From the IMG/VR virus record IMGVR_UViG_3300027759_000110, positions 1-56,727 of that record: a DNA stretch of 56,727 nucleotides; one strand, 5' to 3'. The DNA comes from a virus (Duplodnaviria; Caudoviricetes). Position numbers and translations under genes: made by a program. The notes under the pieces are model-generated. The model worked only from the letters and a program-made list of their open reading frames with translations. It did no database searches and was not told the origin of the DNA. Below, one piece after another: positions 32,975-52,593 of this stretch; position 1 is the first letter of the stretch; every line of letters begins with the position of its first letter.

Positions 32975-33307
32975 TTAAAACGGGATCTCGCTATCATCAG
33001 CAGGGAATTCCTGCGCTTGGTTCTCTTGGCGTACACCGCCTTGTTGTTCGGGAACAAAACGATTCACAGCAATCGACAAATAAGTCTTGCCATTAGTTTC
33101 GCTAACTCTTTTCCAACCGGATAGCTTAATAACTGTCAAACCGTTTTCAGTTTTGATATTTGTCAAGTCTTTGAGGTTAATGGCAATAGTCCCCCAGTAA
33201 TCGGGAGACTGGGCTGTAGTCTTTGTTTGACTTGCAAACAGATTGCCAGTGTCAGGACGTGCCTCAAAGGGCTTCGTATAACTTTTCTTTGGTGCGTAAT
33301 TACTCAT
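32975..33307 (-). CDS. Single-stranded DNA-binding protein (phage type)
   Basis: GNLF...SPDYWG...LSGW...GKTYLSIAV with acidic tail DDSEIPF; adjacent to the annealase. Confidence 0.7.
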   Translation of the reverse strand: MSNYAPKKSYTKPFEARPDTGNLFASQTKTTAQSPDYWGTIAINLKDLTNIKTENGLTVIKLSGWKRVSETNGKTYLSIAVNRFVPEQQGGVRQENQAQEFPADDSEIPF

Positions 33308-34037
33308 TTGGTTTCTCCGTTTGGTTAAGTTTTAGCTTCAAGGATTTGAAGCAGTTCAAGACCTCCTCGTAAAGAGGAGGGTGCGTTTGCTTCAGCGAAT
33401 CAAGCTGAAGTTCATTGCTCTTCCAGTAGCTGTTTAAACCCGCTACTGTGGTGCAGTGGGTCGTCCACTCAATCATTCCATCAGCAAACAACTTACGGCT
33501 TGCGTCTGAGTTGTCCCACTCGGTGGGCTTGGGTTTAGTCTTAGTCAAGATCTTCTCGTACTTATTGCCGTCTTCCTGTTTGGTCAATTCACCCATAGAA
33601 GCTTTCGCCTGTGTGATAGGAGCGGCTTTCTCATCGTCTTGCGGCAAGTCATCTCCGGCATAGATATATATGCCCAAACCGTGCAGGGCGAGAGCTTTGG
33701 TCATGCATCTCATGATGGCAGTGTTAACGGCAAACGCATCGGGGTTAAGGATGGGTTTGTTCTTGTAGTCCATGACAGGCAACATACATGTACGTGGCTG
33801 ACCGAACAGAGTGACGGTGACCCATACCATACCTGTGCCATTGACATCCATGTAGGGTTTACCCTCAAAGATCTGCACATCAAAGGTTGCGGTGGCATCG
33901 GCTTTTAAAGCCTCTTGCCATGCCCACGCCCATGAAAGGTACGTCAGGCCATTCTTCTTCTCTGTGTGCTCGTTGACGTTAATCTTGAGCAAATCATGGG
34001 GCGACATTTGTGTTTCCGTTGTTTCTTTTTTCATCAT
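33300..34037 (-). CDS. Sak3-like (DUF1071) single-strand annealing protein
   Basis: EKKNGLTYLSWAWAW...LPVMD...NTAIMRCMTKALALHGLGIYIYAGDDLP. Confidence 0.85.
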   Translation of the reverse strand: MMKKETTETQMSPHDLLKINVNEHTEKKNGLTYLSWAWAWQEALKADATATFDVQIFEGKPYMDVNGTGMVWVTVTLFGQPRTCMLPVMDYKNKPILNPDAFAVNTAIMRCMTKALALHGLGIYIYAGDDLPQDDEKAAPITQAKASMGELTKQEDGNKYEKILTKTKPKPTEWDNSDASRKLFADGMIEWTTHCTTVAGLNSYWKSNELQLDSLKQTHPPLYEEVLNCFKSLKLKLNQTEKPNE

Positions 34038-34254
34038 GTTCCTTTTGCAATTTATTAATTAAAACCGTGAGGTTTGTTCCAACTGAATCCTCGATAAATT
34101 CAAGACAATCTTCGGCATCCCATCCTTCTTGATAAACACCTAATGTGATATCAGTCAAAAGCTCTTCAATTCTTTCAGCCATATCCAAGCAAGTTTCTTC
34201 ATCCCTGCCCTTCACGATGTCCATGATTTCCTCTTTGACCTCATTGATCTTCAT
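33994..34254 (-). CDS. Acidic hypothetical protein
   Basis: 86-aa ORF with AAGGAG RBS. Confidence 0.45.
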   Translation of the reverse strand: MKINEVKEEIMDIVKGRDEETCLDMAERIEELLTDITLGVYQEGWDAEDCLEFIEDSVGTNLTVLINKLQKEHDEKRNNGNTNVAP

Positions 34255-35107
34255 TTAACTCTCCTTGATATTGTTTACACCACTTGCTGACTCCACAGAA
34301 ATCTCCTGTGCATCGCTTGGGTTCGCCTTTTCTTTCCTCGACATATCCTTTTTCCTTTTCTGCCAACTCTGTGGCTTCTTCTATTGACTTAAATACACGG
34401 ATCGCAGTCTTGCGTCCTTCCCTCTTCACTGCGTAGATGGTCTCGCTCATCCATCGTTCTTCATCGGTACAGGCTTGTAAGTCCTCCCCGAATTCCTGTG
34501 CTTGCTTGGCGGCACGGTGCATGTCCAAGCGTTGGCGTACATAGGTTTCTGTGGTGACCGAGTCCCACATGGGGATGTCAATCATGACTGCCTCTGCTTC
34601 GGGGTAGTTCTCCTGATTGGAGTGAGCACTGTAGTCTTTGATAATTGCGCAGATCTTTAGACCGCAGACCTTTTGCTTCTTGACGGTCTCCACAAGCCAT
34701 TTGTAGATGTTCAACTGGGTGACCCAATCGTCCTTAGACTGCATGACTGACCAAGCCTTGACGAACTTGTAGTCAATGATGACGATACCCTCCTCAGTAT
34801 GTTCCTGTAGGTCAACTGCACCGCTGACAGTGATGCCGTCTATAGAGTGGAAGATCCGCTCCTCGTTGGTGTAGCCCTCAACAGTCTTGCCCTCAAGCTT
34901 GCCGTGCATGAATGTTCCGAGCTGAGATGCAATTAACTTGGTAACGTCAACCTCCATCTCTTCATCATACTGTTCGCGCATTCTGCGTATCTTTGGTGGC
35001 GACATTAACTCTGTTACGCTATACTGTGACGCACCCTTTGTGTAGAAGTCCCTTGCAAGCAAAGCCACGAACGGTGCGGGTAAGCCTTGTTTATTGGTTA
35101 TTTTCAT
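34241..35107 (-). CDS. PD-(D/E)XK exonuclease (Cas4/RecB-like)
   Basis: SVTELM...GTFMH...SGAVD...IIDYK...QLNIY; C-terminal RC..FC....C cluster; next to the annealase. Confidence 0.8.
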   Translation of the reverse strand: MKITNKQGLPAPFVALLARDFYTKGASQYSVTELMSPPKIRRMREQYDEEMEVDVTKLIASQLGTFMHGKLEGKTVEGYTNEERIFHSIDGITVSGAVDLQEHTEEGIVIIDYKFVKAWSVMQSKDDWVTQLNIYKWLVETVKKQKVCGLKICAIIKDYSAHSNQENYPEAEAVMIDIPMWDSVTTETYVRQRLDMHRAAKQAQEFGEDLQACTDEERWMSETIYAVKREGRKTAIRVFKSIEEATELAEKEKGYVEERKGEPKRCTGDFCGVSKWCKQYQGELNEDQ

Positions 35108-35565: not shown

Positions 35566-35656
35566 TCCCATTACAGGAGGAGAGTACCAGCAACTGCAAG
35601 TTGTGGTGCTCATAGTTTAAACCAAAATACAACCGGTAAACAAAATACAGCTGTTG

Positions 35657-37636: not shown

Positions 37637-37876
37637 ATGACACGCAACTATAAACAAGAATTTAAAACACAAACAGAACGTGGCGAACATGAGAACCGAA
37701 TGGAACGCCAACGTGCCCGTAGAAAATTAGACGCTAAGGGAGTGACCCGACAAGGTAAAGACGTAGCCCACGTCAAGGCTTTGTCCAAAGGTGGATCAAA
37801 CGCAGATGGCATCCGTCTTGAGTCACCGGCCAAGAATCGTTCGTTCCCAAGAAAATCTAATGGGGGTATGAAATGA
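37637..37876 (+). CDS. Small HNH-like protein
   Basis: RNYKQE...RARR...GKDVAHVKALSKGGSN...NRS. Confidence 0.65.
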   Translation: MTRNYKQEFKTQTERGEHENRMERQRARRKLDAKGVTRQGKDVAHVKALSKGGSNADGIRLESPAKNRSFPRKSNGGMK

Positions 37877-38373
37877 TTGCAGAAAGTTTAAACCAAAAGG
37901 AATGTTTAAACTGTAAATCTGATTTGGCAGCTTTAGGAAAAAACAGGCAAGCTTTGTATTGTGGTGTTCAATGTAAGAACGCCTACCGCAGGATAAAAGA
38001 TCCTGAGATACATACCCTTCAGACAGCCAAATATAAATCAACCATGCGTGGCAGGGCAATCGCCATGTTTCATGGGACTAAGGTTGGGCGAAGATTCCGT
38101 GATGGGAATGAACTAACGCCCGAATGGATCATGCAAAAATTACAACATGGTTTTTGCGAAGTTACTGGCTTGCCATTTACATACGGATTAGAAGCAAGAA
38201 ATCCGTGGTCGCCATCTCTAGACAGAATTGATCCAAAGATTGGCTACACGTTGGAAAATACACGAGTGGTTGTTTGGATTTACAACACAGCTAAAAACGT
38301 TTTCCACGATGAAGATGTCATGTTAATGGCTCAAGCTTTGATCAATCAAAGCATTAAAGAGACTATGAAATGA
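37873..38373 (+). CDS. HNH-like endonuclease with N-terminal zinc finger
   Basis: CLNC..YCGVQC; CEVTG...PSLDRIDPKIGYTLENTRVV..N..K. Confidence 0.7.
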   Translation: MIAESLNQKECLNCKSDLAALGKNRQALYCGVQCKNAYRRIKDPEIHTLQTAKYKSTMRGRAIAMFHGTKVGRRFRDGNELTPEWIMQKLQHGFCEVTGLPFTYGLEARNPWSPSLDRIDPKIGYTLENTRVVVWIYNTAKNVFHDEDVMLMAQALINQSIKETMK

Positions 38374-40043
38374 ACGCTGAGTTTGTGGATCAGTTCCACT
38401 TCAACGAATCTACTCGGGTTGCTTGCCCGTACTGTTCTACTGAACGTAGAAAATCAAATCAAAAAGACATGACGCTAACCCGCAAAGCAGACGGGGCGGT
38501 CGTGTTTCATTGCCATCATTGCCAGACTAACGGCTCAGTCCAACCACAACAGGAGAGAATTTTGTCAGCCGTACCCAATCCAACAATTGTTTCCAACAAA
38601 CTGCAAGATACACATTACGCATGGTTAGCTATGCGCGGGATTTCAAAACCAACCGCAGACAAGATGAACTTGTTTGCATCAGAAAAATACTTTGGCAAGC
38701 TAGGTAAGACCGCAGATGCCATAGGCTTTCCTTACTACAGACAAGGTGCATTGGTTGCCGCCAAGTACAGATCATTTCCTGAGAAAGACTTTACCCAAGA
38801 CTCAGGCGGTGCACATGATTTTTTTGGGCTTGATCTTGTTAAGAAAGATCAGCCACTCATCATTGTTGAGGGCGAGATAGATTGCTTGTCCCTTATGGAG
38901 TTAGGCTTTGAGAATGTGGTCAGCGTCCCATCAGGAGCACCCATCAAAGTCGCAGATGGAAAGGTTCTGCCCTCCGAAGACAAGAAGTTTGCCTACGTAT
39001 GGAACGCACGGGAAGTCCTTGACGCAGTTCCTTATGTAATCCTTGCCACAGACCAAGACACTGCGGGTCAGGCGTTAGCCGAAGAGTTGGCAAGGAGAAT
39101 TGGAAAAGAGAAATGTCGGCTGGCCAAATTTGAAAAGAAAGATTTAAACGAGGTCATGCTTGATGACCCGACAAAGGTAGGGGAGGTACTGGCATCTGCC
39201 GCCCCGTACCCAGTCTCCGGCATCTCTGACGCGGGCACGTTCTACGAGCGTTTAAACGAGTTGTACGCCAAGGGGACTGGCAAAGGTTTCTCAACAGGCT
39301 ACTCCTCGGTTGATGAGATTTACACAGTCGCCCCTGCACAGTTGACAGTCGTCACTGGTTACCCTTCATCGGGCAAGTCAAACTTTGTGGATCAGATTAT
39401 GGTCAACCTTGCGCAAGCCCATGATTGGAAGTTTGCCGTGTGTTCGTTTGAGAATCAGCCTGAGATCCACATCAGCCGCCTGATGGAGATCTATACCAAG
39501 CGTAGGTTCTTTGATGGCAAGGATCGGATGTCAGAGAGCGACAAAGAGATAGCGTTTAAATTCGTTAAGGATCACTTCTTGTTCATCGATACAAACGGGG
39601 AAGAGCCTTCAACACTGGACTCAATACTGGACAGGGCAAGAATTGCCGTTAAGAGAATGGGAGTTCGGGGGTTGGTCATTGACCCGTATAACTACATTGA
39701 GTTACCAAAGTCAGAGGGGACTGAGACTGCCGCCATCAGCGACATGCTGACTCGGGTTCAGAAGTTTTGTAAGGCACATGACGTGCATACATGGTTTGTG
39801 GCACACCCATCTAAGATCACCCGACAAGGCACTGAACAACCCCGTCCGGATGGAATGTCCATCGCAGGGTCGATGGCTTGGTGGGCAAAGACCGACTGCG
39901 GGGTGACTGTGCACCGCAAGGATCATCACGTAGAGATTGCAGTGTGGAAGTGTAGGTATCGTTGGGTCGGAACGCAGGGCGAAACAACAATGCTATACAA
40001 CAAAACCGCAGGGACTTACTCGGAGAATCTCGATGCCTTCTAA
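38370..40043 (+). CDS. Bifunctional primase-helicase (T7 gp4 / Twinkle-like)
   Basis: CPYC..CHHC zinc domain; TOPRIM IVEGEIDCLS...DQD..G; SF4 helicase Walker A TGYPSSGKS, LVIDPY, VAHP. Confidence 0.92.
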   Translation: MNAEFVDQFHFNESTRVACPYCSTERRKSNQKDMTLTRKADGAVVFHCHHCQTNGSVQPQQERILSAVPNPTIVSNKLQDTHYAWLAMRGISKPTADKMNLFASEKYFGKLGKTADAIGFPYYRQGALVAAKYRSFPEKDFTQDSGGAHDFFGLDLVKKDQPLIIVEGEIDCLSLMELGFENVVSVPSGAPIKVADGKVLPSEDKKFAYVWNAREVLDAVPYVILATDQDTAGQALAEELARRIGKEKCRLAKFEKKDLNEVMLDDPTKVGEVLASAAPYPVSGISDAGTFYERLNELYAKGTGKGFSTGYSSVDEIYTVAPAQLTVVTGYPSSGKSNFVDQIMVNLAQAHDWKFAVCSFENQPEIHISRLMEIYTKRRFFDGKDRMSESDKEIAFKFVKDHFLFIDTNGEEPSTLDSILDRARIAVKRMGVRGLVIDPYNYIELPKSEGTETAAISDMLTRVQKFCKAHDVHTWFVAHPSKITRQGTEQPRPDGMSIAGSMAWWAKTDCGVTVHRKDHHVEIAVWKCRYRWVGTQGETTMLYNKTAGTYSENLDAF

Positions 40044-42111: not shown

Positions 42112-42783
42112 TCAGGCCGCAAGCTTCAGCTTGTCAAACGCTATCGTGCCCAAGTCCTCGATCTTCTCGATGGTCACTGCGTTTTTGTAGATGTGGGTCA
42201 CATCGGCACGGATGCCGATCCCAATGGTTGTGATGCCGAGGTTCTCGCCCACAATGGCTTGCTCTTTGCACTGGTCAGCCTCACCGATTCCATCGCTCAG
42301 TAAGAAGCAAACCTTGCGCTCTTCCTGACGATTCAGCAACAGGCCATGAGCGTATTGCAGGGCAGTGCTATCGTTTGTGCCGCCCCCTGCGGTGATGCGC
42401 TCTAGCAGGGGTTTGATGCGTTGGTAGGGGGTGTTGAAGTCCTTGAGGATCGACACGTCACAACCGAACGTTACGACACTGGTTGCAACCCCTGCCTTGG
42501 TCAGCGTGTCCAGTAGGGCATACGTGGCAAGGATGGCATGGTACATCTTAGAGGTCAGGGGGTCTTTGTTCTTGAACATCGAGCCGGACACGTCCAACAC
42601 AATCACAACCGCAGAGTCGATGCCGTCATGCGCTTTGCGCTGTTTAAACAGGCGGTCATTGTGTGCCATAGTAGGCAGTGCACGGATATTCAAAGTGCCT
42701 GACTTGCGGTTGTTTTGGAATTCTTCAAAGCCTGAATTCTCAAACAGTTTGCGTACAGAGTAACGTAATTTTGCAGGGATCAT
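42112..42783 (-). CDS. von Willebrand factor A (vWA) domain protein, CobT C-terminal-like
   Basis: MIDAS VLDVSGSM, GGTND, LLSDG; start at ATG 42783 with GAGG RBS. Confidence 0.85.
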   Translation of the reverse strand: MIPAKLRYSVRKLFENSGFEEFQNNRKSGTLNIRALPTMAHNDRLFKQRKAHDGIDSAVVIVLDVSGSMFKNKDPLTSKMYHAILATYALLDTLTKAGVATSVVTFGCDVSILKDFNTPYQRIKPLLERITAGGGTNDSTALQYAHGLLLNRQEERKVCFLLSDGIGEADQCKEQAIVGENLGITTIGIGIRADVTHIYKNAVTIEKIEDLGTIAFDKLKLAA

Positions 42784-42793
42784 AAGACCTCTA

Positions 42794-43753
42794 TTAGAAG
42801 TTGATGGGAAACACTGAGTCACCATGTGGCCGAGTGTGTTTTTCTTTTTTGGCAATATGCCCTGTCCAGTAAGTGCCGCCCGTCTCTGTACCCTCGGGTG
42901 CTTTTGTGTCAGGTTCTACCTTACGTGCTTCAACGGGTTGACCATTGGGCTTGATAGGAGACTTCGCAGGGTTAGTTGGGGGGGTAGGTGCACCGCCTCC
43001 CTGATCGCCCGTTGTAGGGTCATCTGAGGGGCTTCCTGAGCCATCCTCGGGATCGCCATCGGTTGGCTGACCATCGGTTGGCTTGTCGCCCTTTTCTTTG
43101 CCCTTTACAGGCTCAGGGTTGGGGTTGATGTTGGGCGGTTGGATCTTAGCCAGTTGGCCGTAAACCCACATTGCAACATCCAAGGTCTGCCATGAATTGT
43201 CGCAAGCGTTTAAACGTTTAGCGGCTTCAGCAAAGATCACTTGCAAACCCTCGGCCACTGGTACTTTGATTGTGGCGTGTCTACGTGCATAGACTGCAAG
43301 AGCAAAGGGGTACTGCGCAGGGTTTGCCCAGTCGGTCACCTCGGCTATGGCTTCGGCCACAACACCATTGATCAATGCGGCAAGCAGGGGTTCAATGTTG
43401 CCAGTCAAGTTGGCCTTGATGGCTTTGTGCTCGATCCATGCATCCTCTAAGGCGTTGTGCAATTGAGCCACATACTGACTGTGATCCCATCCCTTGCGGG
43501 TAGCGTCAAAGTTGGTGTATGTCCAGTGCAACAATTCGTGAATGCCGTAGCCAACATAGCGCATCAGGTCAGCGTGTGTCAGGGTAGCGTCATCTCTGAC
43601 GTTGCTCAGGCAGAGGTGACCTTTTTGGGTGATGGACGCAGACTGAGTGCCGCCCCATTGGATCTGCACTGGGTCACGCCCAAGGTCAGAACAGAACTTG
43701 TGAATCGCCAATGTCACCGCACGTTTAAACTCAAAACCTCGGTAATGTCTCAT
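42794..43753 (-). CDS. CobT-N-like protein with HExxH metallopeptidase motif
   Basis: GYGIHELLH...HNALEDAWIE followed by an acidic/Pro linker; lies between the MoxR ATPase and vWA genes. Confidence 0.75.
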   Translation of the reverse strand: MRHYRGFEFKRAVTLAIHKFCSDLGRDPVQIQWGGTQSASITQKGHLCLSNVRDDATLTHADLMRYVGYGIHELLHWTYTNFDATRKGWDHSQYVAQLHNALEDAWIEHKAIKANLTGNIEPLLAALINGVVAEAIAEVTDWANPAQYPFALAVYARRHATIKVPVAEGLQVIFAEAAKRLNACDNSWQTLDVAMWVYGQLAKIQPPNINPNPEPVKGKEKGDKPTDGQPTDGDPEDGSGSPSDDPTTGDQGGGAPTPPTNPAKSPIKPNGQPVEARKVEPDTKAPEGTETGGTYWTGHIAKKEKHTRPHGDSVFPINF

Positions 43754-43761
43754 GATTTTCC

Positions 43762-45186
43762 TTACAAATATTTTGCTAGAACACTAGCGTTGATGTATGC
43801 CGCCTTGATTGCATCGAGTGCAGTGCGGCTCTCTTCGGGTTGACGTGAAGTAATGGTTGATTCCCAAGCTTCATCGACAGTTAGAACGTCCAGTGCCCGA
43901 ATGAATGCGAGTGCTGAACGAATAGATGGGGGATCAATAACATCCCCAGTGGCAACCTTGGCACGGGCGGCATTGATGGCGTTCACCACATGCTCGGCCA
44001 ACTGTTTCTGACATCCTGTGTGGCGGGTGATGGCCTCGACTTCCTGATCCTTGCTTAGGTAGGTGAACGGGATCACACGGGCAAAGCGGTCAGCCAGTGA
44101 TGAATTCATGGTCTGCGTCTTGGCGTAGCGGCCTGACGTGTCGCCATTGGTCATTGTGTTGTCAGCGGCAAAGACCAACACACCCTGCGCTCTGCGGTGC
44201 ACAAAGCCCCCGTAATTCACTGCACTGTTCTCTTCCAAGAACCCGTTCAAGGGGGCAAGTTCTCCGGCATCGGCCATGCTGATCTCATCGAGCAAAACCA
44301 CAGTCGAGGGGCATGTGAAAGCTTCCAAGAAGTTGCCTTTCTTGAACACTGTCGCACCATTCTCCAAACCTACTGCACCGACATAATCGTCCGCAGTGGT
44401 GTACTTGTGGAAGTTAATGCGAGTGTATGAACGGCCTGTACGGGCGGCAAACTGACGGGCGGTCTCTGATTTGCCAGTCCCTTTCGGGCCTCCGAACCAT
44501 GCGTTCTCGCCTGTGTTTTGAGAGGCAACCAAGTGCTTCAAGATGCCGCCATGCCACACAAAGTTGGGGTCAATTGCAGGGGCGTTGGGTGAATTCCAAA
44601 TGTCAATCATGACGGGGTCACCATTGGCACGGCAGATATCGACACCGAACACATCGAGCGCAGACTTGCGATCCACAATGGTTGCACTGGTAGCACTGGC
44701 AAGCACCGACTCGGCCTTGGCATCCTTGACGGCCTGAGCAAAGGGTTTAAACGCCTTGGCAATTGCACTGGCAACCTCTGCGTTGATCTTGTCCTCATCA
44801 AGGGTTGACTTGGATGCATTGGCAAGCCTGTTCAATTGATCGGTCAGGTCATTGACTTGGGTTGCAATGTTCTTGGTATTTTCCACGGCCAGTCGGGCTT
44901 TTTGGATAGCGTCAAGGGCAGTCGATTCACCACGGCTTGCCACGTTGGAGATGGCATCGAGGCGGGTATTGTCAACACCGCCTGTGTTGTCGGCCACTGG
45001 GGGGCAACCTTTGATGTAGTCAATGCTGACTGAGCCGTCCTCGATCAGGTCAGCAAGCCAGTTCAGGCGAACCATTTTGTCCTTGTCATTGATGACGGAC
45101 TGGGGGGCTTTGAGGGCGATAACCGCGCCATTGATGACGTATTTGTCGATGGGGGTCAGGGTTTTAATTGTGCTTAATGCGGCCAT
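43762..45186 (-). CDS. MoxR-family AAA+ ATPase (CobS/CbbQ/NorQ-like)
   Basis: Walker A GPKGTGKS, Walker B LLDE, AADNT, LADRF; N-terminal coiled coil. Confidence 0.9.
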   Translation of the reverse strand: MAALSTIKTLTPIDKYVINGAVIALKAPQSVINDKDKMVRLNWLADLIEDGSVSIDYIKGCPPVADNTGGVDNTRLDAISNVASRGESTALDAIQKARLAVENTKNIATQVNDLTDQLNRLANASKSTLDEDKINAEVASAIAKAFKPFAQAVKDAKAESVLASATSATIVDRKSALDVFGVDICRANGDPVMIDIWNSPNAPAIDPNFVWHGGILKHLVASQNTGENAWFGGPKGTGKSETARQFAARTGRSYTRINFHKYTTADDYVGAVGLENGATVFKKGNFLEAFTCPSTVVLLDEISMADAGELAPLNGFLEENSAVNYGGFVHRRAQGVLVFAADNTMTNGDTSGRYAKTQTMNSSLADRFARVIPFTYLSKDQEVEAITRHTGCQKQLAEHVVNAINAARAKVATGDVIDPPSIRSALAFIRALDVLTVDEAWESTITSRQPEESRTALDAIKAAYINASVLAKYL

Positions 45187-45214
45187 TTTTATCTCTCCTA
45201 GGTACTGGTTTCTT

Positions 45215-45826
45215 TTAAATTAATCCGAGAACATCGCCCTCATTGGGGCAGAGGGGCAAGTTCAAATTGCCCTGTTTAAACGCCCACTTGGCAGTGAGCC
45301 TGACTGTGTACCCGCATGAGGGGCACACACATTTCAGCATCCGTGTCCCTTGCTTTTTGCCAACCGAGGCAGATAATTCTGCGTGGACATAAGCACCGAG
45401 CGAGTCGATGATCTGTTGGTAGGCGGCAACGAATGCACCGCCATGTGTGACCGATTTGTATCGGGCTGACTGAGTGCCGTTGGGCAACAAGTGCATGGCA
45501 TCTGCCACTTTTTGGTAGGGCTTGCCGTGGTTCAATGCACCCTTGGCGGTGTGGCACAACATGGCAACAAGGGTCTCAAAGACCTTGACGGGGTCAGCCA
45601 GTACAGGGCTGATGAAAATTTCAAAGTGTGCGTCAGCACTGTTGGTATTGGGGAAGCACTCGCCAACCGACTTGAAGTTGGTGCGTTTAGCGTTGGACGG
45701 GAGGGCACAGGAAACCCGAACTTTGTCAGTGATTGACACGCCATTGGACAGGAAAAAGGGACGCAGTTCATCGACTGCCGCAGTGAGCCAGTCTTCACGG
45801 GTAAGGTGTTTGATAGGTAAGGTCAT
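45215..45826 (-). CDS. SprT-like protein with degenerate HExxH and C-terminal zinc ribbon
   Basis: GEC...EIFISP...TLVAMLCH...HGKPY; KQGTRMLKCVCPSCGYTVR..W...LPLCP. Confidence 0.6.
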   Translation of the reverse strand: MTLPIKHLTREDWLTAAVDELRPFFLSNGVSITDKVRVSCALPSNAKRTNFKSVGECFPNTNSADAHFEIFISPVLADPVKVFETLVAMLCHTAKGALNHGKPYQKVADAMHLLPNGTQSARYKSVTHGGAFVAAYQQIIDSLGAYVHAELSASVGKKQGTRMLKCVCPSCGYTVRLTAKWAFKQGNLNLPLCPNEGDVLGLI

Positions 45827-45842
45827 GGATGGTCTCCGAAGT

Positions 45843-45896
45843 GTGGCGAAATTACCACTTCAATGCACTGACTCGCAGTGCATCAAGGTGAAAATT
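45843..45896 (-). promoter_or_regulatory. Repeated structured leader E3 (RNase III-site-like)
   Basis: TGATGCACTG/CAGTGCATTG stem followed by GTGGT-AATTTC-GCCAC hairpin, then GGAGA RBS. Confidence 0.55.
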
Positions 45897-46212
45897 AAGG
45901 GCAGTTGGCGTGTTCACGCAGTGCACCGAGCAGGGTCAGGCCAAGCACATGCTTGCAGATCACGTCACCCCAGTTGCCGAGTGGCTCATGTGTGAGGGCA
46001 AGCAAGAGGGCTTGCCTGTCCTCTTCAGTGCGACTGACTGCACCGAAAAAGTAGAACGCCTGTTGGTAGACAAAGGCTTCACGGGTCTGCACGTTCCAAC
46101 GTGTGGCATTGGGGTACTTGCTGAAGTCATTCTGAGCAGATTTCAGGGTGGCTTTGAGAGTGGCAAGCACCTCAAATGATTGAAGTTGGAAAGTGTTTGT
46201 AACTGTGGTCAT
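45895..46212 (-). CDS. Hypothetical early protein
   Basis: 105-aa ORF with AGGGA RBS. Confidence 0.55.
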   Translation of the reverse strand: MTTVTNTFQLQSFEVLATLKATLKSAQNDFSKYPNATRWNVQTREAFVYQQAFYFFGAVSRTEEDRQALLLALTHEPLGNWGDVICKHVLGLTLLGALREHANCP

Positions 46213-46232
46213 GGTGTTTCCCTATGGGTTGA

Positions 46233-46287
46233 AGTGCGACTTAGCACTGCAATACCCCCGTGCGGAGGGGTATCACGCTGATAAGTC
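46233..46287 (-). promoter_or_regulatory. Repeated structured leader E2 (RNase III-site-like)
   Basis: GACTTA-TCAG-CGTGATACCCC...GGGGTATTGCA-GTGC-TAAGTC long stem; alternative AGTGC-TAAGTC-GCACT hairpin. Confidence 0.55.
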
Positions 46288-46411
46288 ATGCAACCTTTTT
46301 GCCGAGGCAGTCGTTGTAACTGCCAGTGAAAAAGATGCGGTAGCCGTTGCGCTCTGTATCGCCCTTACAGACGATGATGTTGCCGTGGCGGTCAATCTGT
46401 GCGGTGTACAT
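46286..46411 (-). CDS. 41-aa hypothetical protein (not in ORF track)
   Basis: MYTAQIDRHGNIIVCKG...RNGYRIFFTGSYNDCL; AAGGAG RBS. Confidence 0.5.
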   Translation of the reverse strand: MYTAQIDRHGNIIVCKGDTERNGYRIFFTGSYNDCLGKKVA

Positions 46412-46413
46412 AT

Positions 46414-46575
46414 TCATTCTCCTTTGTAGTGACGGGCGATGGCTTGCTGAAGCAGGGCTTGATCTTCAAGCTCAAGCATCATGGAAGCAAAGGGGTGTTT
46501 CCATTCATGGCGGTAGACACGCCTTGCGTTTTCCAATGTGGGGTTGGCCTTGTAGGCATCAAGAAGCTTTTTCAT
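46414..46575 (-). CDS. Hypothetical protein (first early gene)
   Basis: MKKLLDAYKANPT...; GGAGAG RBS. Confidence 0.55.
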   Translation of the reverse strand: MKKLLDAYKANPTLENARRVYRHEWKHPFASMMLELEDQALLQQAIARHYKGE

Positions 46576-46591
46576 AGTGTCTCTCCGTAGC

Positions 46592-46640
46592 AGTGCGAAA
46601 GTGCACTCCATTGCCCAAAGGCAACAGACTGAACTCTTTC
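46592..46640 (-). promoter_or_regulatory. Repeated structured leader E1 (RNase III-site-like)
   Basis: AGAGT-TCAG-TCTGTTGCC...GGCAATGGA-GTGC-ACTTT long stem; alternative AGTGC-ACTTTC-GCACT hairpin. Confidence 0.55.
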
Positions 46641-47110
46641 AGTCCTCTGTGGTGCGATCACCGAGAGGGTGACTGGATCTGCACTATCTACTGTTCTTTG
46701 CCCATCACGGGTCAGTAGGTCTGAGCGGTAATCCTTGCGTGTAAACGATATCGTCTACGCTAACACAACGCTATTGTAATAGCATTGGTTGACAAGGTCT
46801 ACAACTATTTTCAATTATTTTTAAAATATTTTTTGAGGTGATCTGAGCACTGTATTTATATTAGAGCAAGGGTGTTCAGTGTTTTGAACTACAAAGTATT
46901 AGTTTTAATCTGTGTACTTAAGTTCAATTTACCATGGTCTAAAATGAGTACTAAAGTTAATGCACCAAAATGGTGAAAAACGCTCAGGAGACGCGATCGG
47001 GAGGTGGCTAAGGGGGTAGTGGCCTAAATTGAAAACGGACGCTCCTAGGGGCCTTTAAATCGATTCTAGAGGCATGTATGTTTATACAGTTTTTGGCCTT
47101 TTTGGGGTCG

Positions 47111-47235
47111 TTTGTATAAGTAATGTATAACAAATGTATAAGCTGTGGATAACTTGGGGGGTGTGGAAAACCTGTGGATAACATCCTGTGGATAACTTTT
47201 GACTTATGCACAGGGTGTTGATAAACTGTGCATAA
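47111..47235. promoter_or_regulatory. DnaA-box cluster (oriC-like)
   Basis: TGTGGATAA at 47144, 47173, 47187; TGTGGAAAA 47162; TTATGCACA 47204; TGTGCATAA 47227; near-matches at 47111, 47122, 47133, 47216. Confidence 0.8.
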
Positions 47236-47308
47236 TACGAACAGTGCGTTTCCCTGCGTTGGTGATGGGGAAAGTTGGTAGATGCTAACAAATATGGAGT
47301 GTTTAAAC

Positions 47309-47977
47309 ATGACGAAGACAAGCAAGGCTGAGTACAAGGCGGAGTTGGATCAGGCACTGGACGAAGTGGATGAGTGGGCGGGTGATGAAGGCCACGCAGA
47401 ACTGAGCGAAGCGGAACAGTATGCCCATGCCGCAGAGAGACCTAAGCTAAGAAAGGATGGAGAACATAAAGGGTCAGACATAAAGAGACCAAAGCCTCTA
47501 AGCCCACGTCAAGTACTGTTCACACAGGGAGTGATACAGGGTAAAAGCCTAAGGCAAGCTTACAGGGATGCCTATGCCAACGACACAGGATCAGATGCTT
47601 CTATTAGTGCATCCGCGAACAAACTGATGAATGATCCAAGGATCAAGCACATACTAAAAGAAGCTTGGGAAGAGACGGCAGAACACCTCAGTGAAGACCT
47701 TGCCGCAAGCAAGAGATACGTATTGAAAGGACTGTTGGCACTAAGCAAGAAGGCCAAGCAAGAGGGTACTAAATTAAAAGCACTGGAACTGCTAGGCAAA
47801 GCGGCAGGGTTGTTCACCCCGACAGAGGTGCAAGACAAAGCAGTGATCACCGCAGATCAATTGAAGAGAGAACTCGCAGGGCACATGAAACTATTAGAGA
47901 GTGCCAAGGCCAACGTGCTTGACGTAGACATGAAGAGTTTAAACAGTGCTATGCCTATAGCCGAGCAGGGCGTTTAA
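47309..47977 (+). CDS. terS: Terminase small subunit
   Basis: LSPRQVLF...AYRDAY...ASANKLMNDPRI...KALELLGKAAGLF; upstream of TerL; start at ATG 47309 (GGAG RBS). Confidence 0.8.
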   Translation: MTKTSKAEYKAELDQALDEVDEWAGDEGHAELSEAEQYAHAAERPKLRKDGEHKGSDIKRPKPLSPRQVLFTQGVIQGKSLRQAYRDAYANDTGSDASISASANKLMNDPRIKHILKEAWEETAEHLSEDLAASKRYVLKGLLALSKKAKQEGTKLKALELLGKAAGLFTPTEVQDKAVITADQLKRELAGHMKLLESAKANVLDVDMKSLNSAMPIAEQGV

Positions 47978-48296: not shown

Positions 48297-48527
48297 ATGA
48301 GCAAACGCAGACAGTTAGTCCTAGACTTTATCCGTGCATACATTCGGTTGCATGGTGTGTCTCCGTCTTATGAAGTTATTGCCAAAGGAATTGGATTGAG
48401 ATCTAAGTCAAACATACACCGGATCATCCACCGCCTAAAGGCGGATGGACATCTGGAGACCAAGCCTTATAAGTTCCATGCGATTAAGTTAGTGGACACT
48501 ACGGCAAAGGCTATGATGAGACTATGA
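48297..48527 (+). CDS. LexA-like winged-HTH DNA-binding domain protein (no protease domain)
   Basis: RQLVLDFIRAYIRLHGVSPSYEVIAKGIGLRSKSNIHRIIHRLKADGHL matches the LexA N-terminal domain pattern. Confidence 0.75.
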   Translation: MSKRRQLVLDFIRAYIRLHGVSPSYEVIAKGIGLRSKSNIHRIIHRLKADGHLETKPYKFHAIKLVDTTAKAMMRL

Positions 48528-50023
48528 GCTTACTCACCCACGCAGAGATAACAAAGTACTTGGGCATGGCTCCTAAGGCTTCGCCGGAGAACCGGGCTAA
48601 GATTCAGATGCTGTTGGAGATGGACAGGATTGAGCGCAGTAAAGAATCCTTTGTGTACTTCGCCTCGCAGATGTGGCCTGTGTTTATCTCTGGTGCTCAT
48701 CATAAGATCATGGCAGATGCTTTTGAGAGAGTGGCTAAGGGAGAGCTTAAGAGGCTGATCATCAATATGCCTCCCCGGCACACTAAGTCTGAGTTTGCCT
48801 CTTTCCTTCTACCTGCGTGGTTCTTAGGTAAGTTTCCACATAAGAAGATTATTCAGACTGCGCACACTGCCGAGCTTGCCACTGGATTTGGACGAAAGGT
48901 TAGGAATCTTGTTTCATCAGAACAGTATCAAAAGGTATTTCAGACTAAGCTGTCGAGCGATTCAAAGGCCGCTGGTCGTTGGAACACTAATGTGGGTGGT
49001 GATTACTTTGCTATCGGTGTTGGCGGCGCTGTTACAGGTAAGGGCGCTGATCTATTGATCATTGATGACCCCCATTCGGAGCAAGAAGCCAAACAAGGCA
49101 ACGCAGCTGTCTTTGACAATGTGTATGAATGGTTCACTTCCGGCCCCCGTCAGCGTCTACAGCCGGGCGGAGCGATCATTATTGTGATGACAAGGTGGTC
49201 TAAGAGGGACTTAACCGGTCAAATTTTAAAAAATTCGGCTAAAGACGGTGTAGATCAGTGGGAAGTCATTGATTTCCCGGCAATCATGCCCTCTGGTAGC
49301 CCTTTATGGCCCGGATTCTGGTCTTTACAGGCCCTAGAAGCCCTGAAATCTGAGCTTCCAGTGTCTAAATGGGAGGCTCAGTACCAACAGAACCCCACAT
49401 CCGAAGAGGGTGCGATCATTAAGCGCGAAAACTGGCAGCTTTGGGAGAAAGAAGATCCCCCTTCATGTGAATACATTATTCAATCTTGGGATACTGCGTT
49501 TGAAAAGAACAACCGTGCCGACTATTCAGCCTGTACAACGTGGGGTGTGTTTAAACATCCCAATAAACAGGGCGATTTAAGGCCCAACATCATTCTTCTT
49601 GATGCCTACAAAGCTCGTCTTGAGTTCCCTGAACTTAAACACAAAGCTTTGGAGATGTGGAAGGAATGGAACCCAGATACATTGATCGTTGAGAAACGTG
49701 CGGCTGGTGCTCCGCTCATCTATGAGATGAGAAAGATGGGAATACCTATGTCGGAGTATACGCCGGGCAAAGGAAACGATAAGATATCGCGTGTAAACGC
49801 TATCTCAGACTTGTTTGCATCTGGCATTGTTTGGTGTCCTGAGACTCGATGGGCAGAAGAGGTGATGGATGAACTCGCCTCCTTCCCTAATGGGGATCAT
49901 GACGACCTTGTTGACTCAAGCAGTCAAGCTTTGATGCGTTTTCGCTTGGGAGGATTCATCTCTATTGACTCTGACGAGGAAGATGAACCTACTTACCATC
50001 GCAGAAAAGTAGCGTACTACTAA
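48524..50023 (+). CDS. terL: Terminase large subunit
   Basis: NMPPRHTKS Walker A, LLIIDDP Walker B, QSWDTA and HDDLVD nuclease motifs. Confidence 0.95.
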   Translation: MSLLTHAEITKYLGMAPKASPENRAKIQMLLEMDRIERSKESFVYFASQMWPVFISGAHHKIMADAFERVAKGELKRLIINMPPRHTKSEFASFLLPAWFLGKFPHKKIIQTAHTAELATGFGRKVRNLVSSEQYQKVFQTKLSSDSKAAGRWNTNVGGDYFAIGVGGAVTGKGADLLIIDDPHSEQEAKQGNAAVFDNVYEWFTSGPRQRLQPGGAIIIVMTRWSKRDLTGQILKNSAKDGVDQWEVIDFPAIMPSGSPLWPGFWSLQALEALKSELPVSKWEAQYQQNPTSEEGAIIKRENWQLWEKEDPPSCEYIIQSWDTAFEKNNRADYSACTTWGVFKHPNKQGDLRPNIILLDAYKARLEFPELKHKALEMWKEWNPDTLIVEKRAAGAPLIYEMRKMGIPMSEYTPGKGNDKISRVNAISDLFASGIVWCPETRWAEEVMDELASFPNGDHDDLVDSSSQALMRFRLGGFISIDSDEEDEPTYHRRKVAYY

Positions 50024-50031
50024 GGAATATT

Positions 50032-52593
50032 ATGAGCATAGAGCAATCATTGAGCCAAGCCCCATTGGGTTTAAACATGTTAGAGGTAGATGAGTCTCCA
50101 ACCTTTGAGATTGAGATCGTCAACCCTGAGGGTGTAAAGATAGATATGGATGGCGTAGAGATTGATCTAATGCCAGAAGATGATGAGGAAGGCTTTGATG
50201 ACAACCTCGCAGAATACATTGATGAAGGTGAGCTTCAAAAAATTGCCACTGATTTAATTGAGATGGTTGAAGCTGATATCAATTCCAGAAAAGACTGGGT
50301 TGATATGTATGTCAAAGGTCTTGATGTTTTGGGAATGAAGTATGAAGAGCGTACTGAGCCATGGCTGGGGGCGTGTGGTGTATTTTCAACTGTTCTTACC
50401 GAAGCCGCAGTGCGCTTTCAAAGCGAAACAATTATTGAAACCTTTCCGGCTCAAGGCCCAGTTAAGACAGAAATCATTGGTGCAATTGATAAGCTCAAAG
50501 AGGAAGCAGCGGAGCGTGTCAGAGATGACATGAACTACAAACTCACGGAAGGTATGCCAGAGTACCGCCCTGAGCATGAGCGCATGTTGTATTCCTTAGG
50601 TCTGGCTGGCGCAGCTTTCAAGAAAGTCTACTACGATCCAACCATGGGCCGTCAGGCAGCCATCTTTATCCCCGCAGAAGATGTGATCATTCCTTACGGT
50701 GCTTCCAGTGCCATGACCTCCGAGCGTGTGACTCACATCATGCGCAAGACTAAGAATGATATTCGCAAGCTTCAGGTCAACGGCTTCTACCTTGATGAAG
50801 ATCTTGGCGATCCTCTTGAGTTCTACACCGACGTAGAAAAGAAGAAAGCTGAAGATCAGGGATATAACTTATCTGATGATGACCGCTACCAGATCTATGA
50901 GATCCACGTAGACTACGACCTCCCCGGTTATGAAGATGAGAACGGCATCGGTCTTCCTTACGTGATTACCTTAGAGCGCGGTACACAAACAATTTTGTCT
51001 GTTCGCCGTAACTGGGTTGAAGACGACAAACACAAACTCAAGCGCCAGCACTTTGTTCAGTACACATACGTACCCGGCTTTGGTGCTTATGGTCTGGGAT
51101 TGATTCACCTGATCGGTGGATACGCCCGTGCAGGCACATCTTTGATTCGTCAATTGGTGGACGCAGGTACATTGTCCAATCTCCCCGGAGGTCTTAAGAC
51201 TCGTGGTCTGCGCATTAAAGATGACGATACCCCAATCACTCCCGGTGAGTTCCGAGATGTGGATGTGCCCAGCGGTTCAGTCAAAGACAACATCATGGCT
51301 TTGCCATACAAGGAGCCTTCTCAGGTTCTCTTGTCTTTGTTGAATCAAATTACAGACGAGGGCAGAAGACTTGGATCTATCGCAGATATGAACATCAGCG
51401 ATATGTCTGCCAACGCCCCCGTAGGTACAACTCTGGCTCTGTTAGAGCGCCAGCTTAAGACCATGTCTGCGGTGCAAGCTCGTGTTCATTATTCAATGAA
51501 ACAAGAGTTTAAACTGCTCAAAGAAATCATCCGCGACTACACCCCTGAAGAGTACGAGTACACACCTGTATTTGGTACACCTCAGGCCAAGCGCGAAGAC
51601 TATGACATGGTGGATGTTATTCCGGTCTCCGACCCAAATTCAGCCACGATGGCTCAAAGGATCATGCAGTACCAAGCTGTGATTCAGCTGGCCCAAGGTG
51701 CTCCTCAGATCTATGACCTTCCATTGCTGCACCGTCAAATGATTGAAGTCTTGGGTATCAAGAACGCAGATAAATTGGTTCCAGTTGATGATGACCAAAC
51801 TCCTCGTGATCCCGTGTCCGAGAACATGTCATTCTTGACCGGAAAACCTACTAAGGCGTTTATCTACCAAGATCATGACGCTCACATTGGTGTACACACA
51901 ACAATGATGCAGGATCCTATTGTGATGGGACAGATTGGTCAAAGTCCTATGGCTCAGCAAATCCAAGCTGCAATCATGGCCCACGTTGCCGAGCACGTTG
52001 CATTCCAGTACCGCCAGAAGATTCAGGAACAGCTTGGAGCAACATTACCAGCACCTGATGCAAAACTGGATGAGAACGCAGAAGTTCAAATCTCTAAACT
52101 TGTGGCCCAAGCTGCAACTCAACTTCTCCAGATGGATAAAGCCAAGCAAGCTCAGCAGCAAGCGGCCCAGCAGGCTCAGGATCCAATTATCCAGATGCAG
52201 CAAGCCGAACTCCAAATCAAAGCCAAAGACGCTGAGACAAAACAACTCAAAGTTAAAGGCGACTTGCAGCTCAAAGCTGAAGAGCTATCACTCAAGGCGC
52301 AGGAAAGCGCAGCTAGAGTTGGGGAAGATCCCAATATGGCAGCAATGCGTTTACAGCAAGAAATTGCTCAGGCTCAAGAGTTACACGCTTTAGAGATGGC
52401 GGCTAAGCAGATGGAGCTTCAGCAAGCGCAGGCCCAACAGCAACAGGCTCAAGCTCAACAGCAGCAAGCCATGATGCAACAACAACAAGTTCACCAACAG
52501 AATATGGCTCATGGTGGACAAGTTCATAAGCAAAAAATGGGTCACACCGATTTAGATCAGCTTCAAAAGTTATTAAAAGGTAATAAGGAGTAA
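50032..52593 (+). CDS. Portal protein (podoviral, long C-terminal Q-rich barrel)
   Basis: 853 aa directly after TerL; AFKKVYYD, YGLGLIHL motifs; Q/A coiled-coil tail like P22 gp1. Confidence 0.88.
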   Translation: MSIEQSLSQAPLGLNMLEVDESPTFEIEIVNPEGVKIDMDGVEIDLMPEDDEEGFDDNLAEYIDEGELQKIATDLIEMVEADINSRKDWVDMYVKGLDVLGMKYEERTEPWLGACGVFSTVLTEAAVRFQSETIIETFPAQGPVKTEIIGAIDKLKEEAAERVRDDMNYKLTEGMPEYRPEHERMLYSLGLAGAAFKKVYYDPTMGRQAAIFIPAEDVIIPYGASSAMTSERVTHIMRKTKNDIRKLQVNGFYLDEDLGDPLEFYTDVEKKKAEDQGYNLSDDDRYQIYEIHVDYDLPGYEDENGIGLPYVITLERGTQTILSVRRNWVEDDKHKLKRQHFVQYTYVPGFGAYGLGLIHLIGGYARAGTSLIRQLVDAGTLSNLPGGLKTRGLRIKDDDTPITPGEFRDVDVPSGSVKDNIMALPYKEPSQVLLSLLNQITDEGRRLGSIADMNISDMSANAPVGTTLALLERQLKTMSAVQARVHYSMKQEFKLLKEIIRDYTPEEYEYTPVFGTPQAKREDYDMVDVIPVSDPNSATMAQRIMQYQAVIQLAQGAPQIYDLPLLHRQMIEVLGIKNADKLVPVDDDQTPRDPVSENMSFLTGKPTKAFIYQDHDAHIGVHTTMMQDPIVMGQIGQSPMAQQIQAAIMAHVAEHVAFQYRQKIQEQLGATLPAPDAKLDENAEVQISKLVAQAATQLLQMDKAKQAQQQAAQQAQDPIIQMQQAELQIKAKDAETKQLKVKGDLQLKAEELSLKAQESAARVGEDPNMAAMRLQQEIAQAQELHALEMAAKQMELQQAQAQQQQAQAQQQQAMMQQQQVHQQNMAHGGQVHKQKMGHTDLDQLQKLLKGNKE

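Follow-up and report, generated by a model that had tools for sequence, protein, structure and literature searches.

The stretch of DNA analysed here, called the window throughout, is a virus record of 56,727 bp which is classed as linear and has an estimated completeness of 92% (IMG/VR). Its structural genes form a rightward block that begins with terS, the gene for the small terminase subunit (47282-47977, + strand; phrog_51, E 8e-12), continues with TerL, the large terminase subunit (48524-50023, + strand; phrog_38, E 7.5e-109; Terminase_6C), and the portal gene downstream of TerL (50032-52593, + strand), and wraps round to positions 1-28478, where it ends with a single ORF of 3019 aa (19419-28478). 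On the non-structural side, genes were found for a Sak-type annealing protein (33300-34037, - strand), a PD-(D/E)XK exonuclease (34241-35107, - strand), small HTH proteins, an endonuclease VII-like protein (37873-38373) and a primase-helicase with Toprim and DnaB_C domains (38370-40043, + strand), which is the sole replisome enzyme found. A leftward operon encodes a VWA/CobT-like protein (42112-42855, - strand) and a MoxR/CobS-like AAA+ ATPase (43762-45186, - strand). The first gene of this operon (46414-46611, - strand) specifies a small conserved protein with homologues in the relatives, for which Pfam and PHROGs returned no family match and whose likely start is an internal Met at 46575. 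No tRNA genes were found in the window. In a metatranscriptome run, five small contigs matched the leftward operon, all within 44114-46582, at 95% identity or more (four of the five at 99% or more); the silence of the run over terS carries no weight.

The nearest named phages, as judged by TerL, are DSL-LC04, 023Pt_psg01 and the Pelagibacter phages HTVC027P and HTVC023P with 51-58% identity. Public runs which share part of the sequence as contigs (20 listed) are labelled freshwater, lake-water, aquatic or plain metagenome. Among bacterial species representatives the window TerL had one match only, an 80% identical TerL on a 1528-bp MAG contig (L175); this contig suggested Saprospiraceae as the host, a lead that was dropped because the contig is too short to name one.

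As a separate observation, the window has 52 copies of the 8-bp palindrome GTTTAAAC where 1.1 would be expected, and six copies of the palindrome of this length that ranks next; two relatives (G001 and G002) have 52 and 49 copies of GTTTAAAC. The copies have no flanking consensus, lie in coding as well as non-coding DNA (e.g. at 35615, 35670, 35701 and 47301) and are sparse in the first 20 kb (1-20 kb). The gene for the 3019-aa protein contains 13 of them, and in front of terS one copy separates the ribosome site from the ATG.

Leftward operon and terS are separated by a long non-coding hub of 670 bp (46612-47281), as delimited by ORF lists and alignment; its length is 640-790 bp in an alignment of 15 relatives. 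The gene map thus agrees with the original prediction, made from the sequence of this DNA, which had placed an array of DnaA boxes where the two transcription units diverge. An AT-rich tract expected at about 46800-46960 was found at 46784-46962 and is the least stable part of the hub in the stability profile: the region's least stable 40-mer, with -40.3 kcal/mol at 46798, surpasses the window's 0.1% least-stable cut-off of -42.8 (window mean of -53.8, standard deviation of 3.6). Positions 47107-47156 also belong to the 400 least stable positions of the window. The AT-rich tract holds overlapping promoter-like sites in both directions (46789-46818, 46798-46827 and 46833-46862 on the + strand, 46801-46773 on the - strand), and the promoter scan, scored with the E. 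coli consensus, gave six sites against 1.3 expected. A conserved G+C-rich block (46975-47100) is seen in the alignments between this tract and the array.

Two further elements of the hub may be mentioned for themselves. A short hairpin (46963-46975) lies just upstream of the G+C-rich block and, by eye, seems to be kept with altered sequence in relatives. The leader of the leftward operon (46585-46770, - strand) has a conserved multi-stem fold with 47 predicted pairs, 16 of which show compensatory changes in eight relatives. An Rfam search of 46300-47500 at E<=1 gave no credible match, the operon leader included.

The array itself extends over 47111-47235 and comprises six exact, two 1-mismatch and two 2-mismatch sites. 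In the whole 56.7-kb window the consensus TTWTNCACA has nine exact matches, compared with 6.47 expected from shuffles, and six of the nine fall inside the 92 bp of 47144-47235, at 47144, 47162, 47173, 47187, 47204 (opposite strand) and 47227. A stretch of 92 bp is expected to contain 0.0105 matches, which gives six or more a Poisson probability of about 2e-15, or about 1e-10 after multiplication by all start positions; elsewhere in the window exact sites occur at 0.054 per kb. Read in the TTATCCACA orientation, the near-match at 47111 is TTATACAAA with one mismatch, those at 47122 and 47133 are both TTATACATT with two mismatches each, and that at 47216 is TTATCAACA with one mismatch. All six exact matches and all four near-matches listed in the original prediction were recovered on re-scoring, and the spacings of exactly 11 bp that it gave for the 47111-47144 series and for the pairs 47162/47173 and 47216/47227 were reproduced on re-measurement.

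From left to right, the array starts with three weak DnaA-like 9-mers on the - strand (47111-47141) which share a TTATACA core and are separated from each other and from the first strong box by 2 bp, so that the 9-mers at 47111, 47122, 47133 and 47144 stand, at the sequence level, in an 11-bp register. The four exact boxes at 47144, 47162, 47173 and 47187 (47144-47195, - strand; the + strand reads TGTGGATAA or TGTGGAAAA) are followed by the reversed exact box TTATGCACA (47204-47212, + strand), which overlaps a -35-like hexamer, and by a 1-mismatch box (47216-47224) and an exact box (47227-47235), both on the - strand, the second of which overlaps a -10 element. As the remaining start-to-start spacings are 18, 14, 17 and 12 bp, the array is phased only in part. 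It contains a single short inverted pair (47204-47213 and 47226-47235), and the sole repeat other than the boxes is TGTATAA. The weak sites adjoin the first strong box on its 5' side, with the TGTGGATAA strand as reference, and fall on DNA of low duplex stability; a 10-mer consensus of these repeats has three matches in the window, which are these three AT-rich 11-mers themselves. By sequence, the weak-site repeats at 47111-47141 are a DUE-like element, made of AT-rich 11-mers of low duplex stability.

A search with TerS gave 43 related loci with 57-89% identity. A box cluster with 3-9 exact boxes is present in all 38 loci that hold DNA upstream of terS, and the five loci without boxes begin at or inside terS. 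The presence of boxes at the syntenic position in relatives, on which the original prediction had staked itself, was therefore confirmed. G001 (61 kb) and G002 (64 kb), two near-complete relatives, have no second cluster, and none was found in three named structural relatives (TerL 56-58% identity). Two layouts can be distinguished. Group A resembles the window. In group B, with 13 loci, the distances between boxes are 34, 21, 45, 18 and 22 bp, and the TGTATAA repeats are absent. The 9-mer is the same in both layouts, the spacers are not. A count over 30 distinct upstream sequences gave 248 sites with at most one mismatch, among them 150 copies of TTATCCACA, 29 of TTATGCACA and 18 of TTGTCCACA. 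A common orientation is shown by 191 of these 248 sites, the commonest start-to-start distance is 11 bp (45 times), and the terS start codon lies 55-84 bp from the last box in 30 of 30 sequences. Contigs L002, L021 and L024 end inside the array; whether these ends mark genome ends was considered and dismissed, as their positions differ and, informally, their number is not clearly above chance.

Among 18 distinct group-A rows, the fraction of the majority base is 0.966 in box columns and 0.860 in spacers, and 73 of 90 box columns but only 18 of 35 spacer columns are invariant. This is a rough test, since the rows are related; four rows (three truncated, and L042 with a different indel pattern) were left out of the count. 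The 7-nt core TTATACA of the weak sites is invariant or nearly so in the same 18 rows. DnaA is the universal bacterial initiator, and a 9-mer which outlasts the divergence of spacers, layout and TerS points to such a universal host protein rather than to a phage protein. Judged from these sequences, the sites are very probably genuine host-DnaA sites whose strong boxes would be bound by DnaA. The array is a real feature under selection and is read most simply as a host-DnaA site.

The right half of the array coincides with two promoter-like sites for terS in 47199-47246 (+ strand), TTGACT-17-TAAACT (47199-47227) and TGCACA-18-CATAAT (47207-47236). The boxes at 47204, 47216 and 47227 overlie the -35 and -10 elements of these sites (47199-47236), an overlap at the sequence level that was called with the E. 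coli consensus. The -10 element at 47231-47236 differs among relatives at tolerated positions only and has the conserved CGAACAGTG after it; searched at 0 mismatches, this motif has no second copy in the window. Key positions of the -10 hexamer are kept in both layouts, at a fixed distance to terS.

Similar arrays were found in other phages. A scan of viral contigs for pairs of consensus boxes at a distance of 11 bp yielded at least 119 stretches; 28 of those listed contain at least five exact boxes per 250 bp, with up to 11 boxes in some. Among the matches listed, the 88 ORFs flanking these 28 loci belong most often, where families have names, to the large terminase (6 proteins) and the M15 endolysin (5), and no replication family was found within their 25 commonest PHROG families or the 18 Pfam families reported. 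TerL lies within two ORFs of the array in 6 of these 28 listed loci. In 12 of the 28 the array adjoins the gene for a homologous protein of about 130 aa with an AT-hook, after which TerL follows in four and endolysin in five. This protein is a candidate for terS by position only; its profile gave no PDB match and no Pfam or PHROG family beyond the AT-hook. Of the 28 listed array records, 5 encode PolA, among them two of the four with a completeness of 90% or more. An unrelated lineage of uncultured podoviruses (group X), which encodes PolA, carries up to 11 exact boxes, many in a strict 11-bp register (L054, 3860-3998; L097, 1467-1703; L079, L160, L086 and others). The order in this lineage is boxes, G-rich block, then AT-rich DNA in L054 and L097, and the gene for the AT-hook protein of about 130 aa.

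With one such array as the blastn query, matches were obtained in 75 records of cultured or deposited phages, 17 of them Lactococcus records; six of the 75 were inspected, none of these from Lactococcus, and each has at least five exact boxes. Two of these carriers are cultured Autographiviridae with boxes spaced about 21 bp in their direct terminal repeats: Enterobacter phage phiEap-1 (KT321314.1; L177 1-200, L180) has five exact boxes in each 195-bp repeat and Klebsiella phage vB_KpnP_ZK1 (OK625527.1; L176, L181) six in each 292-bp repeat. In Vibrio phage BD5 the boxes lie in intergenic DNA. Limnohabitans phage DC31 (PQ492658.1; L179 2400-2700) has five exact boxes beside two other sets of tandem repeats in an intergenic gap of about 900 bp, a region which looks origin-like from its sequence. 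Five co-oriented exact boxes in non-coding DNA were also found in Microviridae (PQ006258.1, L182 900-960; KT264787.1, L183 900-1000); in the Microvirus record the array directly follows the replication initiator gene, and the other carrier is a Gokushovirus.

We tentatively read the array of the window, from its sequence, as a docking site for host DnaA that serves as the replication origin of the phage, a reading in which our confidence stays clearly below even. Host DnaA would bind the strong boxes at 47144-47235 and from these would extend along the 11-bp register to the weak sites with the TTATACA core (47111-47141). Opening of this low-stability DNA, or of the AT-rich tract at 46784-46962, would ensue, and the phage primase-helicase would load on the opened DNA while the host polymerase copies the genome. 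The boxes at 47204-47235 cover the terS promoter at its -35 and -10 elements, so this DnaA complex would in addition gate late (packaging) transcription, and the gate could lift as replicated copies dilute DnaA.

In favour of this reading, HMM searches (including PF00476, PF00136 and PF08299, with positive controls) for PolA, PolB, Bac_DnaA_C and tyrosine integrase found none of them in any of the three clade genomes, which bears out, for HMM searches, the statement of the original prediction that no polymerase or initiator gene is seen. A clade without its own polymerase must borrow that of the host. The Microviridae arrays in non-coding DNA, one of which comes directly behind a replication initiator gene, also speak for an origin. 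PolA is present in all three structural relatives (TerL 56-58%), all of which are array-free, and it is reported to belong to the HTVC023P-type core genome (PMC9599517). A general rule that the array accompanies the loss of the phage polymerase was rejected: it fits the window clade compared with the three HTVC023P-type relatives, but the PolA-encoding records among the other arrays listed (5 of 28) break it. No Rep-type initiator was found beside the array with Pfam and PHROGs among six leftward and three rightward genes including terS (small ORFs between terS and TerL were left out).

Other observations bear on the origin reading with mixed sign. The GC skew, which the original prediction had proposed as a check, shows no sign switch at the array in the window (1-kb steps) or in G001 and G002 (2-kb steps) and lends the origin no support; GC skew is a weak marker in phages. 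In the proposed comparison with host origins, the three-box layout (11 + 14 bp) had 0 matches among bacterial species representatives. AT-rich repeats adjoining the first box are not evident in group B, unlike in the window and group A. For bacterial origins the BUS model of Murray and colleagues asks for a box with at most two mismatches, a spacer of at most 16 bp and DnaA-trios of the form (NAN)>=3 (PMC8287927). By eye, three NAN triplets are found at 47126-47134, 9 bp from the box at 47144, a pattern which is too loose in AT-rich DNA to discriminate. The 5' side on which the weak sites lie would be the side of unwinding in that model, an orientation we infer from its wording "5'-tail" (PMC8287927). 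Most other array lineages have their AT-rich DNA on the side of the boxes opposite to that of the BUS model.

The original prediction had offered an origin and a sink for DnaA as alternatives. We rank the origin as the best single explanation for this phage family, though with considerable reserve, because it alone accounts for weak phased sites on low-stability DNA together with the missing polymerase. Its necessity is weakened by the arrays in PolA-encoding phages and in terminal repeats and by the boxes on the -10 element. Since such arrays are found beyond polymerase-less phages and outside replication modules, three other roles are kept as live rivals, and these roles and that of an origin are not mutually exclusive.

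The position of the boxes on the promoter suggests that DnaA could use the array to switch, or to obstruct, transcription of the terS (late) unit: DnaA on the -35 and -10 elements would repress, or would block read-through from upstream, with relief by dilution or by nucleotide state. DnaA/box complexes do repress promoters and block RNA polymerase in an orientation-dependent manner. The two promoter-like sites embedded in boxes at 47199-47236, the -10 element kept across both layouts and the distance of 55-84 bp between last box and start codon in all 30 distinct sequences are consistent with such a role. So is the polarity of the arrays: in the window family, in group X (L054, L097), in phiEap-1 and in two Microviridae, the strand that carries the downstream genes is the one on which the array reads TGTGGATAA, and in L097 and the two Microviridae sigma70-like promoters were recognised by eye between array and genes. 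We nevertheless consider the switch unlikely as the role of the array. Known DnaA-regulated promoters need one or two boxes, compared with about ten here, partly in helical register; the arrays of group X, phiEap-1 and Microviridae lie roughly 50-400 bp upstream of promoters and not on them; and the promoter calls rest on the E. coli consensus, which may not be that of the host.

By analogy with datA, the array could instead act as a sink: genome amplification would provide thousands of high-affinity sites that bind up DnaA, halt new rounds of host replication and derepress DnaA-controlled host genes, which would favour the phage. Six exact and two 1-mismatch boxes in the window would provide the binding capacity, and an explanation would be at hand for the arrays of high-copy Microviridae and of phages that can do without a host initiator, such as PolA-encoding group X, T7-like phages and T5. 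Each genome has a single array, or each terminal repeat its own. A sink needs no fixed position, no orientation and no weak phased sites, yet the distance to terS, the polarity and the register of the weak sites are all conserved, which makes this role, too, an improbable one.

The neighbourhood of the terminase genes raises the possibility of a DnaA dock linked to genome ends or packaging, near pac or cos, which might, like the injection-stop region of T5 or the terminal-repeat arrays of T7-like phages, serve entry arrest, membrane anchoring, the handling of concatemer junctions or terminase assembly. The array lies 55-84 bp upstream of terS, the usual place of cos and pac sites. Among the other loci listed, 12 of 28 have their array next to the gene for the protein of about 130 aa, with TerL following in four, and 6 of 28 have TerL within two ORFs. 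Boxes inside terminal repeats, five in phiEap-1, six in vB_KpnP_ZK1 and about eight in T5-like phages as reported in the T5 preprint by Davison (10.1101/866236), point in the same direction. Microviridae have arrays and possess neither terminase nor terminal repeats. To our knowledge there is no precedent for DnaA as a packaging cofactor, nor did we find one, which also counts against this role; we regard it as quite doubtful. A 123-bp end repeat of G002 was examined as a physical terminus and set aside as an assembly overlap, because an open frame of at least 1598 codons runs through it.

It is very improbable that TerS or some other phage protein is what binds the repeats and that these only look like DnaA boxes: the repeats do lie directly upstream of terS, and the TGTATAA cores are conserved as 7-mers and not as 9-mers, but the 9-mer is unchanged while TerS diverges to 57% identity, it recurs beside unrelated proteins in other lineages, its variation falls mostly at positions which the DnaA consensus leaves free, and HMM searches of the three clade genomes found no DNA-binding domain like that of DnaA.

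The array is a DnaA-box cluster on a phage of lytic type, and the class to which it belongs looks broad and little described. The literature searched contained almost nothing on phage DnaA-site arrays beyond plasmid-prophage origins and the T5 preprint, and no paper was found on arrays upstream of terS or in terminal repeats of Autographiviridae. Beside the T5 work, the only related report found is an Ori-Finder prediction in a Pseudomonas phage (PMC11512268). It is conceivable, if still somewhat short of an even call, that polar DnaA-box arrays form a widespread and essentially undescribed class of phage cis-elements which hijack the host initiator for one common function, either starting and organising phage DNA metabolism or shutting down the host, and that this class spans the present freshwater family, the PolA-encoding podovirus lineage, T7-like terminal repeats, T5 and Microviridae.

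Selection on the array is clear throughout an uncultured freshwater family, and elements of the same kind occur in cultured phages that infect Enterobacter, Klebsiella, Escherichia, Vibrio and Limnohabitans as well as in Microviridae. If the origin reading is true, a polymerase-less phage would borrow the complete initiation pathway of its host; if a sink or a switch is true, the array would represent a new route of host takeover or a coupling of late genes to replication. The cultured carriers, which include phages of the E. coli group, make the function of the array testable either way.

Comparison with known systems places the array closest to several elements at once. With oriC (E. coli-type orisome and BUS model; PMC8287927) it shares consensus boxes, a strong box that would nucleate weak sites 2 bp apart, a mostly uniform orientation and low-stability AT-rich direct repeats 5' of the first TGTGGATAA. 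Unlike oriC, the array is phage-borne, has no neighbouring dnaA and no GC-skew switch, lacks the AT-rich repeats in group B and overlies a promoter with its right half. Like datA and other titrating clusters, it groups high-affinity boxes outside the chromosomal origin, but it is denser, polar and tied to a promoter; the function of datA depends on an IHF site and specific boxes. P1 oriR and RK2 oriV also recruit host DnaA on a mobile replicon. They combine DnaA boxes with Rep iterons, whereas neither a Rep-type initiator gene nor a separate set of iterons was found beside the phage array.

The injection-stop (iss) region of T5-like phages, as reported in the preprint (10.1101/866236), resembles the array in having several conserved consensus or near-consensus boxes, close pairs, a long non-coding region, a lytic phage as carrier and family-wide occurrence. 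There, about eight boxes lie in the terminal repeat, arranged as inverted repeats with 52-bp spacers and as pairs 3 bp apart, in phages with their own replisome, and the author judged them unlikely to serve replication or as an origin (10.1101/866236). The present array is located upstream of terS and is mostly co-oriented, with 2-bp gaps and a single short inverted pair, and the T5-type pairing (3 bp apart, inverted repeats 52 bp apart) was not found in it. The terminal-repeat arrays of the Autographiviridae phiEap-1 and vB_KpnP_ZK1 resemble it in having five to six exact, co-oriented TTATCCACA boxes in non-coding DNA at the terminase end of the map.
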